Assembly (NCBI GenBank): GCA_964016885.1
Contig: OZ024752.1
Coordinates: forward strand, 32,550,001-32,614,000
DNA from: Eledone cirrhosa
Lineage: Eukaryota
DNA length: 64,000 nucleotides
Direction of reading: 5' to 3'
Shown here: positions 15,895 to 40,436 of the stretch, one piece after another
Numbering within the stretch: the stretch's first letter is position 1
Layout of the letters: each line of letters starts with the position of its first letter
Program-made: the position numbers and the translations under genes
The notes under the pieces: generated by a model
Databases searched by the model: none
The model's input: the letters and a program-made list of their open reading frames with translations, nothing else
What the model was told of the DNA's origin: nothing

Positions 15895-16106
15895 CAAACG
15901 TTCTATTTAAATTATAACTGATATAAAGCACTCGACAAATATTTGGAGTAAATATACGATATTAACAAATGGAAACTATATTTATAAAACCATATCTATT
16001 TTATTATACATATTTCAAGGATACCATGTTAAATTATGGTATCCTTGAAATATGTATAATAAAATAGATATGGTTTTTAAATATAGTTTCCATTTGTTAA
16101 TATCGT
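15895..16106. mobile_element. Fold-back palindrome of PLE family-A pLTR, collapsed at HHR stem II
   Basis: Arms mirror about 16030; same sequence family as 700-830; flanked by (TA)n. Confidence 0.75.
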
Positions 16107-16146
16107 ATATATATATATATATATATATATATATATACGTACATTC

Positions 16147-16220
16147 ATACTGATGAGGAGAGAAAGTTGGTGATTCCTTCGCTTAATAATTTGCGAAACA
16201 GTTCCTATAACTGTCTAGGT
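16147..16220 (+). ncRNA. Hammerhead ribozyme candidate
   Basis: CTGATGA g...c GAA acagtt cctat aactgt C tag. Stem III is good (6 bp); stems I and II are weak. Confidence 0.5.
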
Positions 16221-18111
16221 ATTTCAGGCAGTTGCCCAATGTAGGTTTGTTTTTCTTTTCCTTGATTTTTTTACTTTAAATTAAGTCTGGCAAACCATAT
16301 TGTTATAGTTAGTATTTTTTTCACCCTAGTGGTCCTTTACAATTCAAACACATGTATGTTTGTATTTGTGTTTATCTCTCTTGTATATTCAATTATAATA
16401 CATATACACAGAGAGAGATTGTGAAGAAGCAGAATCCTGTAATATTTCGGTGTCAGGATTGATTACGACAAAAGAGCTACGGTACATGGAGAACGTACAC
16501 AACAACAACAAGATTATATTAATACATTATGTGATTATTAGAAAGAAGACTAGAAAATTGTTAAATTACATTTAGATATATGTTGAGAGGGAAGAATATT
16601 AGTGGCTATGTGGGTTAGTGTGTGTCTATGTGAGTCTGCCTGAGTGTAGCGAGTACATATATCTATGACAGAGGGGAGGGGGGTACGTATGTCTGTGTTT
16701 GAATATTTCTTTCTGTGTCTGTGTATACGGCGGCGGGGGCACGTGTGTGTGCGTACTTCTGTCTGTGTTTGAATATTTCTCTCACTGTGTCTGTGTGTCT
16801 ATGGAGGCGGGGGCACGTGTGTCTGTGTGCGTACTTGTGTCTGTGTTTGAATGTCTCTCTCTGTGTCTGTGTTTGAATGTCTGTGTGTGTTTGTCACTGT
16901 GTCTCTGTCTGTGTGTGTGTCATTGTGTGTGTGTCTTTGTGTGTGTGTGTCACTCTGTTTCTGTGTCTTTATAAGTATATATATACCATAGGATGTTTGT
17001 AGTCGGGTCTTAGCTTTGATCCAATGAATATACTCTACTTATAAAGAGAGTAGAAAAACATACTTTGTCTTTCTCTCACCCTCTGTCTCTGTCTCTTTCT
17101 TTCCCTCTCTCATTCTCTCTTTGTCTCGTCTTGGGCATTATGATGGTGGTTTGGCAGTATCGGTAGAGGGTCGGACAACATGCTTTGTAAGCACAGAGTT
17201 ACGCCCCTTTCTGATCCGAGTTCAAATCCTGCCGAGGTTAACTTTGCCTTTCATCGTTACGGGGTCGATAAAATAAAGTACCAGTAATACACTGGGGTAA
17301 TTGCTGGCCTTGTGCCAACAGTAGAAACAGTTATGATATGCATGCATATATATTTACACACCTTCACACACATACAGATATATATCAAAGATATATTACC
17401 CTAGAAATGTGGTTTCTGATTTAGGCACAAGGCCAACAATTTTGGGGAAGGGGAAGTTGATTATATCGACCCAGTGCATTACTGGTACTTTATTTTATCA
17501 ACCCGGCGAGGATGCGGCTGCTCGGCGTACGGCGGACGCGTGGTCTGATCTCAAGCAGCGTTTCTGTTCACTTTTCCCGTCATCGAGGGGGGGTACTCTA
17601 TCCAATTTATTAAACTATAATTTTATTTATCTGCATTGTGGCGACTTCCACACCGGAAAAGCAAACATATTTTGAAATTATTTTAATACAGGTTAAAGCG
17701 ACTAGAATTAAACACGTGGGTCGGCAGACACGTGCAACACTTGATTACTGTAAACAGCGGCGGTAACTCGTTGACATGTAGCGTTAATTATTTCCTTTGA
17801 TTGTATGAGTTCCTTTTAATAATTGTAAACACAAAAGGTAACGGGGGAACTAGTATTATTGTCGAGTCAGATTTACATACAGAAATTATTAATTAAATAT
17901 TTGGGGAAAATTAAGATCTGAGATTCAGATAACTGATATTCGAAAAACGGGTTTGACACCATATAAAGCAACATTGGTAGATATACGGTCTCTAATCCTA
18001 TGCTTGGTTTGGCTTTGAAACCCTATGTAGCACGCAACTGTGTTGAGAATGTATTCATAATACAATACAGGGCGGTCTTTTTTCTTTATCTCGTCTATGG
18101 AAACTCTAGAT

Positions 18112-18405
18112 CAGGCATGGGCAACCTTTTTCGAGAAGCGGGCCGCATGAGATATGGCTCATCATCAGGTGTGCCGCAAGCGCTAATTTACTTTCGTGCC
18201 CACATTTAAAAAAAGGGGGCGGTAACTCAGGTTGTTTTGATTTGTTTCTTCAGAATTCGTACACGTTGTTTGCTTCGATCGTAAAAATGATAGAAAGATA
18301 AATTACGACTGAAAAGTTGGGGTTAAAAAAATCAGAAAGATTTTACTTTGGTGACTTAGGCGAGCCATTCAGAAAGCTTCGCGGGCCGCAGGTTGCCCAT
18401 GACTA
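18112..18405. mobile_element. hAT (Charlie-like) MITE
   Basis: TIR caggcatgggcaacct / aggttgcccatgacta; 8-bp TSD ctctagat / ctctaaat. Confidence 0.72.
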
Positions 18406-18587
18406 CTCTAAATACTAAACATACATATTAATTAAAAAGGGGGAGTGAAGTTCTATACAAATCGAAGATTATCGGTAAAAAGTAAAAGTCGAAAAGCACA
18501 GGAATATATTCAAAAATTATTTCGTTAATCAATCAGAATAAATATTTTTATTTTTGTTACATTAAATGAATTTAAATCAATTTATCA

Positions 18588-18626
18588 AATATTACCGGTT
18601 TCGATTGGTATGTCTTATCAAATATT
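18588..18626 (-). ncRNA. Degenerate minimal hammerhead ribozyme
   Basis: Minus strand: aatat TTGATAA gac atacca atc GAAAC cg GTA atatt. Two core substitutions, probably inactive. Confidence 0.4.
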
Positions 18627-37465: not shown

Positions 37466-38235
37466 TTGAATAAATAATGAATAAATATTACATAATTTAT
37501 ATACTAAATTTCGTAACTCTTGATTAAATATATGTTATTGCTTATTTAAAGATTCACTTGTTCAAAATTTTCAAAGTCAACACTTCCGGTTATATTATAA
37601 CACTTATAAAATAATCGTATATATTTCCGTCACTAATTTTCTCCTAATAGAGTTTATATATAATACCGTCTTTTTTAAATGTATCATGGATTACTTTACT
37701 GATTACATAAGACAGTGTAACACAGTCTTCGTTCAACTTCTGTGTATATTGTCAATTACGATTTTATTTGATGTATCATATCTACATGCATATATACTTG
37801 CGTATAATATCAATATGCACACTACACATGCTAGTTTATTTAAGGACTTTAATCAAAATTGAAGTGATGATGGTACTATCATATAACCTGGTGCTCTCTT
37901 AACCCCCTCCTGTGACACATGAAACCACATTAGCAAAGACATATATACCCGAAACGTCTAAAACAACAGCCGCTATGACTGCAAATTTTTACAACGATCT
38001 GCTCACTAGTAAAGATACTATAAGCATTTGGATTATCAAACTTAATTTTATATATACATTTTGTATATTATATAAATCACTACAGACGTTAAGAGTCAAG
38101 AGATATATGCATGGTCCCGTAACTCGTGATGGAGTCGTAGGAGCGGGGTAGAGGCATTCGACATTTCTAGGGCATTTAAGCCTGACGGAGTTCAACCCTC
38201 TCCAGGTCTAGTGAAAAAATAGCTGATGTCAAATA

Positions 38236-38554
38236 CAGTGGAACCTCGGTTCACGATCGCCTCGCATCTCAAACAAATTGGTTCACGAACATTTTTTTCC
38301 GAACATAAAACGTCTCAGTTGACGAACGGTGTCTCGAGTAACGAACACGCAAGTTGGCAATAACGATTGGCAACAAGCTGGGAGTATCTGCGGGAAAGCG
38401 TCCCTTTCTGTCTAGTTAATTACTATGGTGATATCTATCTGTCTTTCACACACAGTCTCTCTCTCTCTCTCTCAACATTTCGTATGGAAAACAATAGTTT
38501 CGGTTTACGAACATTTCGGGTGACGAACAGACTTCAGGAACCGAGGTTTCACTG
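38236..38554. mobile_element. pogo/Tigger-like MITE
   Basis: TA|cagtggaacctcggttc ... gaaccgaggtttcactg|TA. Confidence 0.75.
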
Positions 38555-38604
38555 TATATATAAAATAATTCAGTTTATTATTATTTGACAGACAGGCGGT
38601 TACA

Positions 38605-39142
38605 GTCCTTTACAGTCTGAGTTCCAATCCCGCCGAGATTAACTTTGCCTTTCATCCTTACGGGGTCGATAAAATAAAGTACCAGTAACGAACTGGGTTG
38701 ATTTAATCGACTTTCCGCTCCCCCAAAAATTACTGGCCTTGTGCCTATATAAGAATGGTAGTATCGGTAGAGGGTCGGAAGCCATGCTTTCCAGCATAGT
38801 TACGTCCCTTTACGATTTGAGTTCAAATCCCGCCGAGATTGACTTTGCCTTTCATCTTTACGGGGTCGATAAAATAAAGTACCAGTAATGCACTGGGATA
38901 ATTGCTGGCTTGTGCCTAAAGTAGAAATTATTATTATTTGAGGCAGTGGTGGCAGTGGATTGGCAGTATCGGTAGAGGGTCGGACGCCATGCTTTCCAGC
39001 ATAGTAACGTCCCTTTGCGGTCTGAGTTCAAATCCCACCGAGGTTAACTTTGCCTTTCATCCTTACGGGGTCGATAAAATAAAGTACCAGTAATGCACTG
39101 GGATAATTGCTGGCCTTGTGCCAAAAAATAGAAACAATTATT
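38605..39142 (+). mobile_element. Three tandem plus-strand SINEs
   Basis: Major SINE family, three copies. Confidence 0.8.
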
Positions 39143-39886
39143 TGACAGACATTTCTATAAGACAACTCCAAGACATTTCATCTGTATTGTTCTGAGGGAA
39201 AAATAACCAGATTATTGTTAGGAACGCAGCTAAATTTCCAGATTTCTGGATTATTAATAGAGTAGAATTCTCAAACTTCAATTTCTATTACTTAGCTATA
39301 TTTAAACTTCGATTACTTATCGAGACTTAATTGAACTATATGACTTCAGTACAATGCTTTAAATGAATATTTTGAAAACTAATAGATCTGCACTCTACTT
39401 GTCATTGATAATGCATTTATCTATTGTGTTCTTATGTTTAAAAACTGTGACAGTTCTGGATGATGGCGTGTAAGATGAGTACACGTACTTTATATATATA
39501 TATATATATATATATATATATATTAAGACAGGGGGGAAGAAAAAATGGCTTCACTTGTGCTTTCAACAAATTTATTTTCTTCACAAAATCCAAAAAGAAT
39601 TTTTTCCGGATTAGAAAAAATTTTTTTATTAAAAAAAATTATTTTATAAATTAAGTTGTTGGTTGTTGGTTGTATATATAGATATATATATATATATATA
39701 TATATACAAGTACACGTACTTGTGTGTGTATATATCTATATATACAAGTACACGTACTTATATATATATATATATATATATATATATATATACACACAAG
39801 TACACGTAGTTGTGTATGTGTGTATATATATATATATAAATATATACATATATATATATACAAGTACTTTTATATATATATATATA

Positions 39887-40436
39887 CGATATTAACAAAT
39901 GGAAACTATATTTATAAAACCACATTTATTTTATTATACATATTTCAAGGATACCATGTTAAATTATGGTATGCTTTCATCAGACAAAATACAATATATA
40001 CCAGTTTTATAAATAAACATTGACGTACCCTTTCAAAATGCAACCGTTACTTTTGGAAGACATCAGGATAGTGGATTTGTTTATTTTAGTAAGTCGTTGT
40101 GTTACTGCGTCTTTTTCCTTCTCCTTAACACAACGACTTACTAAAATAAACAAATCCACTATCCCGATGTCTTCCAAAAGTAACGGTTGCATTTTGAAAG
40201 GGTACGTCAATGTTTATTTATAAAACTAGTATATATTGTATTTTGTCTGATGAAGGCATACCATAATTTAACATGGTATCCTTGAAATATGTATAATAAA
40301 ATAAATATGGTTTTATAAATATAGTTTCCATTTGTTAATATCGTATATTTACTCCAAATACTTGTCAAGTGCTTTATATCAGTTATAAAAATATTTGCTT
40401 GTTCTATCCCAACAATTTAAATAGAACTTTTGCATA
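39887..40436. mobile_element. Fold-back palindrome of PLE family-A pLTR with two intact HHRs (39927-39991 minus; 40239-40303 plus)
   Basis: Arms of about 215 bp around a ~21-bp loop near 40115; right arm carries the ~90-bp tail. Confidence 0.82.

Follow-up and report, generated by a model that had tools for sequence, protein, structure and literature searches.

Palindromic insertions in the window

Four long palindromes were examined in a 64,000-nt stretch of the Eledone cirrhosa genome (i.e. the window; GCA_964016885.1, contig OZ024752.1, positions 32,550,001-32,614,000 of the forward strand). A first-pass annotation of this DNA had described them as independent, inverted insertions of a Penelope-like element (PLE) into (TA)n, lacking an open reading frame (ORF) and not being copies of one miniature inverted-repeat transposable element (MITE). 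Their positions were confirmed and the description held, as all 72 sampled insertions (72/72) had distinct pairs of arm ends and copies bearing a reverse transcriptase (RT) were built alike. On sequence grounds, the palindromes are almost certainly ORF-less head-to-head insertions of a Hydra-clade PLE. In each palindrome, one arm stops at a short end, the other extends ~90 bp further (i.e. the tail) and TA repeats lie outside both. A decayed PLE is present in the same window.

Palindrome A, 15895..16106: tail arm 15895-16036 (sense -), short-end arm 16030-16106; (TA)n flanks 15811..15894 and 16106-16137
Palindrome B, 20931..21366: tail arm 20931-21198 (sense -), short-end arm 21199-21366 (sense +); (TA)n flanks 20919-20930 and 21370-21405
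Palindrome C, 27548..27978: tail arm 27548-27802 (sense -), short-end arm 27803-27978 (sense +); (TA)n flanks 27526-27547 and 27977-28028
Palindrome D, 39887..40436: short-end arm 39887-40104 (sense -), tail arm ~40105-40436 (sense +); (TA)n flanks 39871-39886 and 40437-40450
Tail of D, 40346..40436 (+): ~90 bp between both fixed outer ends
Window PLE, 697..3245 (-): decayed, sister family; C-terminal part of the RT (2740-3200), CxCX5C linker, broken GIY-YIG-type endonuclease and 3' untranslated region (UTR)
Ends of the window PLE: hammerhead 741-801 (-), short end at 697, inverted tail of ~45 bp at 3200-3245

A one-arm tail of ~60-90 bp had been proposed; the asymmetry was confirmed and is also present in the window PLE, but the tail measures ~90 bp, or 57 bp in A, which carries a 21-bp internal deletion. 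TA flanks were likewise found at all four palindromes, although those adjoining the tails of B, C and D are short or imperfect. Arm-to-arm differences amounted to 1/77 aligned bases in A, 9/169 in B, 0/159 in C and 4/216 in D. The identical arms of C fold as a perfect hairpin of 159 bp (-259.5 kcal/mol, z -35), with 0/100 shuffled sequences folding as well. As had been noticed, the centre of A lies inside stem II of the hammerhead, its arms being joined via a 7-nt microhomology from this stem; A is without a complete hammerhead. The centres of B and C are within ~20 nt of a putative transcription start site (i.e. +1, described below) and the short arm of C begins at ~+5. The centre of D lies 30-50 nt upstream of +1, both of its arms extending beyond this site.

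The arms of A to D match the hammerhead-bearing 3' end of the window PLE (690-840) with 78-89% identity, supporting the homology suggested by the first-pass annotation. Descent from the PLE at 697-3240 was not supported, as the parent of the palindromes is a sister family that is ~80% identical to this element. Searches with the tail arm of D detected copies of 98-99% identity across the 3.0-Gb genome, and the window PLE family has its own 98-99% identical copies. Exact 31-mer matches, which provide lower bounds, identified at least 1,597 tail ends and at least 2,501 short ends genome-wide, both followed by TA, while reversed controls gave 0 matches.

Palindrome arms grade continuously into RT-bearing copies. 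Locus L092 consists of a 700-bp inverted short-end arm and, attached to it, a tail arm of 3.5 kb that contains RT and endonuclease. Locus L096 is an unbroken tandem copy with the order inverted arm, partial pseudo-long terminal repeat (pLTR), tail, frameshifted ORF, 1.7-kb UTR, pLTR and tail, and a unit length of 4,032 bp; a pLTR arising from a partial tandem, an inverted 5' copy and a one-sided tail are all present. The ORF of L092 and L096 contains RT motifs (YYSSI, MGS and YRDD) followed by a VVY-YVG endonuclease, i.e. the PLE combination of RT and C-terminal GIY-YIG domain. Its nearest clusters in Atlas carry HTH_animal, RVT_1 and GIY-YIG (score 0.92), which serves as a lead, and Pfam searches with PLE fragments produced no RT or GIY-YIG match. 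L096 encodes VKSDKT (i.e. DKT replacing DKG) and RIRWR (i.e. R for K in RWK). Reading of L091 by eye identified a CNCRNKSNC linker (i.e. CxCX5C), CDLCIEE and RNNLFSCCRH, with CCHH being absent; the linker of the window PLE, CNCRIKSNC, is of the same CxCX5C type. The probable placement in the Hydra clade is based on these motifs (DKT, RWR, CxCX5C, CxxC/CxH and no CCHH), the hammerhead and the (TA)n target. The relevant passages of PMC8557442 describe Hydra-clade elements with the same C-terminal endonuclease, DKT, CxCX5C, lack of CCHH, hammerhead and (TA)n target, and with CxxC and CxH around conserved E and N, RWR in our family standing for RWK. These elements are generally <3 kb with tails of 30-40 bp, in contrast to the 4,032-bp unit, 1.7-kb 3' UTR and ~90-bp tail observed here. 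The palindromes also differ from non-LTR retrozymes: instead of tandemly arrayed hammerhead monomers, they consist of one pair of arms, head to head, and grade into coding PLE copies.

Inverted copies, a one-sided tail and a (TA)n bias are all among the PLE features published in parts of PMC8557442, PMC3846280 and PMC2377424, and the legend to Fig. 2 of PMC8557442 depicts an inverted 5'-truncated copy plus one-sided tail. The architecture is known and this is a new family of a known kind; what is new are the TATA-word outer ends, the common source of the arms and the non-random 5' ends. Passages of PMC8557442 on these structures contain neither start-site pile-ups nor end-pairing statistics of the type given below.

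Two further features of the family were observed. Asparagine-rich stretches occur between RT and endonuclease (L092:2256-3491 (-) and window 2500-2560), as described for rotifer Penelope elements in a section of PMC3846280. Several insertions were located in one TA tract or within ~1 kb of each other (L108; L051/L052; L171; L180), indicating that TA tracts are re-used as targets; some of these clusters consist of copies of both sister families placed back to back.

Outer and inner ends of the arms

The continuation of L096 past each outer end identified the origin of these ends. From the tail, the sequence passes through TATA into the leader of the ORF, and within the element TATAT comes after the short end; both fixed outer ends, which are ~90 nt apart, are therefore internal TATA words matching the target. 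Pairing of these ends was assessed for 88 tail ends out of the first 100 given for contig C1 and for the first 30 short ends, both samples being read in chromosome order. An inverted short-end partner was found for 56 tail ends and tail sequence on the other arm for 4, the other 28 having no inversion, an arm leaving the stretch or damage. A tail partner was present for 23 short ends (22 distinct) and a short-end partner for 0, with 7 not resolved. The partner end was in TA for 57/62 palindromes. One short end pairs with one tail end as a near-strict rule.

Inner ends were tabulated for 72 short/tail insertions after hand curation and removal of 7 duplicates, with an uncertainty of a few bases. 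A pile-up at the word ACTATCC was first noticed in 30 loci and then tested on separate sets. Arm ends were located at +1..+5 of this word in 36/144 cases as compared to 1.7 expected; 63/144 were at +1..+25 and 3/144 at -24..0. With 36/144 ends falling within five bases of an initiator-like ACTATCC, the 5' ends are non-random. For the sister family, 23/30 arms begin in the interval -2..+20 relative to this word and another 3 begin upstream of it, there being little else in common between the families in this region. Genome-wide, 446 matches were found to a word located at +8..+33 versus 118 to one at about -31..-6, these being rough figures as subfamilies differ. Both arms ended at +1..+16 in 14/72 copies. 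The differing depths at which the palindromes were said to fold back were thus borne out, but they are not random as ends cluster at ACTATCC. Similarly, 'heavily 5'-truncated' is a misleading term for the many arms that end at this fixed point, which is probably the 5' end of the RNA itself; a strong RT stop at ACTATCC is the alternative.

A pentamer resembling the downstream promoter element (DPE) was detected at +27..+29 in 23/25 long copies, exactly at +28 in 14, against a background of 0.007 per base, and the window PLE has a similar motif at +28. In core promoters of the initiator-plus-DPE type, the DPE lies at +28 to +32 from the initiator A, and the spacing observed here agrees with this. 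Candidate core promoters in the window are as follows.

40155..40189 (+): putative core promoter in D; initiator-like CCACT, A(+1) at 40158, DPE-like GGTTG at +28 to +32
40041..40075 (-): mirror copy of this putative core promoter, outward-pointing, A(+1) at 40072
841..875 (-): sister-family ACTATCC (A+1 at 872) with DPE-like AGATC at +28

An internal TATA-less initiator with a downstream promoter element is also reported for the pLTR of D. virilis Penelope in the promoter section of PMC2377424. That promoter was mapped experimentally whereas the one proposed here is deduced from insertion ends, and the DPE letters differ.

Origin of the head-to-head arms

Our preferred explanation, with a probability of roughly 0.68, is two-ended priming at a (TA)n break, using RNA of one source element with a defined start site. 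The endonuclease of the element would cut both strands of (TA)n, and each DNA 3' end would pair with one of the two UAUA words and prime complementary DNA (cDNA) synthesis. ACTATCC would be the transcription start of an internal initiator-plus-DPE promoter and, because the RNA would begin there, arms primed on the 5' pLTR would stop at this word (no longer than 186 and 277 nt), while those primed on the 3' pLTR would be long and randomly truncated. Host end joining would then connect the two cDNA ends head to head. If a single RNA serves both ends, tail-primed RT must displace the first cDNA, and this displacement would explain why it stalls more, down to tail-only stubs like 3200-3245. The way in which the ends pair and the more frequent stalling of the tail arm are both explained by a single RNA with strand displacement. 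Use of both the 5' and 3' pLTRs of one mRNA as templates is an alternative.

Three sets of comparisons bear on this explanation. Arm identity was determined for the 40/62 palindromes with ≥50 overlapping positions and was 98.5% within copies versus 94.2% between copies (n=40, p 9e-12). Subfamily markers were common to both arms in 121/128 cases as compared to 32 expected. The short arm reached further 5' in 47/72 copies and the tail arm in 23/72; the arms overlapped in 64/72 copies and were without overlap in 8. Part of this direction bias is built in, as tail arms can be shorter, and a corrected comparison restricted to differences >10 nt gave 30 versus 15 copies (p 0.036). Over the same stretch, +25 was reached by 51/72 short arms versus 30/61 tail arms (p 0.013). 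Junctions (n=62) exhibited microhomology of ≥3 nt in 23 cases, inserts in 19 and blunt joins in 7, a mixture that is expected of end joining. The centres of L010, L018, L034, L100 and L124 contain templated inserts from the first 30 nt of the putative transcript, resembling polymerase-theta-type joins.

Several observations weigh against two-ended priming or parts of it. The own arm was the best or tied-best partner in only 20/40 copies. Seven alleles seen nowhere else were present on both arms in 5 copies, which could be due to arm-to-arm conversion after insertion. When tail arms too short for a comparable partner were omitted, the direction bias was 36 versus 23 (p 0.12). The tail arm is longer in 23/72 copies and also in A and D, and for these a snap-back of the cDNA is an equally good explanation. 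The initiator consensus fits 15/25 long copies and not the sister family; the pairing rule is followed by 12/15 resolved copies of that family, with two short/short pairs and one tail/tail pair. Two RNAs originating from one locus would leave the same arm patterns as one RNA. [quoted passage not shown]

Snap-back or self-priming, in which a tail-primed cDNA (or antisense transcript) folds back on itself, copying then extending as far as the internal TATA word, accounts for the shared variants, the private alleles on both arms and the one-sided tail. This route fits copy A neatly, as the tail arm carries the stem II loop and the join is the 7-nt stem II microhomology, and self-priming on an antisense template was proposed for rotifer PLEs, namely Adineta vaga Penelope, in part of PMC3846280. 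The short arm should then be a subset of the tail arm, a prediction broken by the 47/72 copies with a further-reaching short arm, the 8 copies without overlap and also by the tail-only stub of the window PLE. The 36-47 copies with a longer short arm cannot arise by snap-back, and the junctions with inserts (19/62) or blunt joins (7) also argue against it. Snap-back is therefore unlikely, being excluded as a general route unless later one-sided deletion is common; the arm lengths argue against self-priming as the main route and the 'fold-back' picture of the first-pass annotation is wrong for at least half of the copies. It is improbable as well that two RNA molecules were used, in successive or simultaneous priming by a protein dimer, with the likeness of the arms stemming from a dominant source locus per germ cell or from gene conversion. 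Strand displacement is unnecessary on this route, PMC11167929 predicts a PLE dimer, and both the 14/72 copies with two arms ending at +1..+16 and the few copies whose arms are merely 91-95% alike are in favour. On its own, it leaves the near-constant pairing of short end with tail unexplained, as well as the stalling of tail arms before +25.

Propagation of the palindrome itself, either as a DNA MITE or as a hairpin ribozyme RNA copied whole, would produce identical centres. Such centres recur (L215/L219; L014/L017/L060) among nine palindromes picked for short centres plus five known ones, 10/14 of which were parsed, 8 fully. These copies differ in markers present on both arms, so that recurrent centres look like hot-spot joins. 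The distinct arm-end pairs and the gradation into RT-bearing copies also argue against this scenario; a DNA MITE would have a fixed interior and symmetric terminal repeats where variable centres and asymmetric ends were found, and the hammerhead has a pair probability of 0 in the predicted hairpin of a ribozyme RNA. Self-propagation is consequently very unlikely. Assembly or amplification chimeras are the least probable source. In their favour, library amplification can make perfect palindromes and the arms of C are identical. Contigs from four sequencing runs, when compared with the centre of C, included no piece spanning the junction, an observation that speaks neither for nor against a chimera. 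The arms of A, B and D differ from each other within each copy, the outer ends are fixed and TA-flanked, and the structure matches published PLE insertions, all of which are against an artefact.

Two-ended priming has precedents in other elements. Twin priming of L1 involves both target ends priming cDNA on one RNA, leading to an inversion; L1 inversions have no overlap and the second primer site varies. In our family, by contrast, the second site is fixed and the cDNAs usually overlap (64/72), producing a palindrome. According to the experiments described in PMC11167929, PAc cuts and extends both DNA strands in vitro and its RT starts at two internal sites, inside the pLTR-ORF junction, that define the tail. 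Two tail-defining RT starts are likewise proposed for our family, as is priming of both strands. The sections of PMC11167929 dealing with these reactions do not derive the inverted structure from two-ended priming, and no two-ended priming model of PLE inversions was found in the freely accessible literature, supplements aside.

A fuller version of our preferred two-ended route is more tentative and rather doubtful in its entirety. A single ribonucleoprotein would use two fixed UAUA sites of one RNA molecule to prime from both sides of a (TA)n break, with strand displacement, and would copy mostly the promoter-proximal 277 nt of the mRNA. If true, copies keeping initiator and DPE would be small outward-facing promoter pairs whose transcripts, running from start site to tail and into UA repeats, could be copied again; the family would amplify ORF-less while seeding thousands of divergent core promoters in microsatellites. 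Under the preferred explanation itself, many 'truncated' PLE stubs would be complete copies of the mRNA 5' end, and through them promoter cores facing outward, together with DNA able to form long hairpins, would be spread over the genome. The origin of PLE tandem and inverted repeats and the preference for microsatellites are named as open questions in a passage of PMC8557442. This young, abundant family offers exact coordinates for addressing them, namely the two sites at which priming is predicted, the predicted transcription start and a rule as to which of the arms stalls.

Hammerhead motifs and neighbouring sequences

Three palindromes had been described as carrying an outward-reading hammerhead on each strand. 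A motif descriptor applied to both strands detected seven hammerheads in the window, i.e. one in the window PLE and the following six on both strands of B, C and D.

21063..21127 (-): minimal type I hammerhead motif, intact core, tail arm of B
21261..21325 (+): hammerhead motif, short arm of B; core CUCAUGA (G5-to-C), predicted inactive
27678..27742 (-): minimal type I hammerhead motif, tail arm of C
27880..27944 (+): minimal type I hammerhead motif, short arm of C; predicted cut after AUA
39927..39991 (-): minimal type I hammerhead motif, short arm of D
40239..40303 (+): minimal type I hammerhead motif, tail arm of D

As the + strand core of B carries the G5-to-C change, 5/6 of these palindrome cores are intact. 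The Rfam search suggested by the first-pass annotation gave no hammerhead among the 150 matches listed of 281 for the window, nor on 27840-27975, a miss that would be in keeping with a stem III of only two pairs. The assignment therefore rests on the descriptor and on covariation of stem II. In the fetched loci, the CUGAUGA core was kept in 227/254 motif matches and stem II covaried between AUACCA/UGGUAU, ACACCA/UGGUGU and GUACCA/UGGUAC. The CUGAUGA/GAAA core, a very short stem III with palindromic loop, the dimer-type architecture and the covarying stem II all resemble metazoan PLE hammerheads as presented in parts of PMC4209133. Unlike the highly conserved G10.1-C11.1 closing pair described there, the corresponding pair is A-U or G-U in the common variants of our predicted ribozymes. 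No report on cephalopod PLE hammerheads was found in the freely accessible literature, supplements aside.

Self-cleavage on a hairpin transcript, as originally envisaged, was not supported by folding predictions. Read-through hairpins of B to D have energies of -246 to -355 kcal/mol and a hammerhead stem I/II pair probability of 0 to six decimals. As the hammerheads cannot fold in the predicted read-through hairpin, a 'ribozyme on a hairpin' is unsupported; nearest-neighbour energies suggest that read-through may yield double-stranded RNA and not a working ribozyme. For the monomer, the active fold was at -3.6 kcal/mol versus a minimum of -10.6 kcal/mol, and the dimer is predicted to pair via stems I and III. 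An outward transcript from +1 is predicted to form stem II (>0.99) and little stem I as a monomer. Dimer-type minimal hammerheads are reported in a section of PMC4209133 to need dimers and to cleave poorly. Cleaved 3' hammerhead products were rejected as RT templates, since 0/144 arm ends were located at +136..+142 around the predicted cut at +139. This agrees with PAc, for which uncut RNA is the main substrate and hammerhead cleavage is not needed (in vitro results in PMC11167929). The hammerhead appears to be a passenger of the pLTR, with uncut RNA as template. One-directional A-to-G editing between arms was not seen (AG 13, GA 12).

Other repeats adjoin the PLE-derived sequences. A near-intact L1/Tx1-type long interspersed nuclear element at 21888-27525 encodes a 650-aa ORF1 followed by APE endonuclease, RT and zf-RVT; it contains one stop at ~24937 and borders with its 3' end on the TA tract next to the tail of C. 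Window positions 40437-41375 and 62674-63633 form a 99% identical inverted pair, 22 kb apart, the first of which starts exactly at the tail end of D. One copy adjoins an N gap near 41585-41784, and the pair is either a recent duplication or an assembly duplicate. A repeat at 557-652, 3384-3587, 44649-44758 and 59055-59243 flanks the window PLE on both sides (557-652 versus 3434-3531: 95%), which suggests that this PLE, together with its microsatellites, is located within or next to another short element. An imperfect palindrome (84%) at 1-264, truncated by the start of the window and terminating shortly before (TA)15 at 291, is unrelated to the PLE palindromes, and hairpins or inverted repeats outside this family are also present at 58926-59065 and 10065-11746. 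A repeat of ~175 bp resembling a short interspersed nuclear element occurs at 4131-4303 and in more than 20 other places, often as partial tandems.

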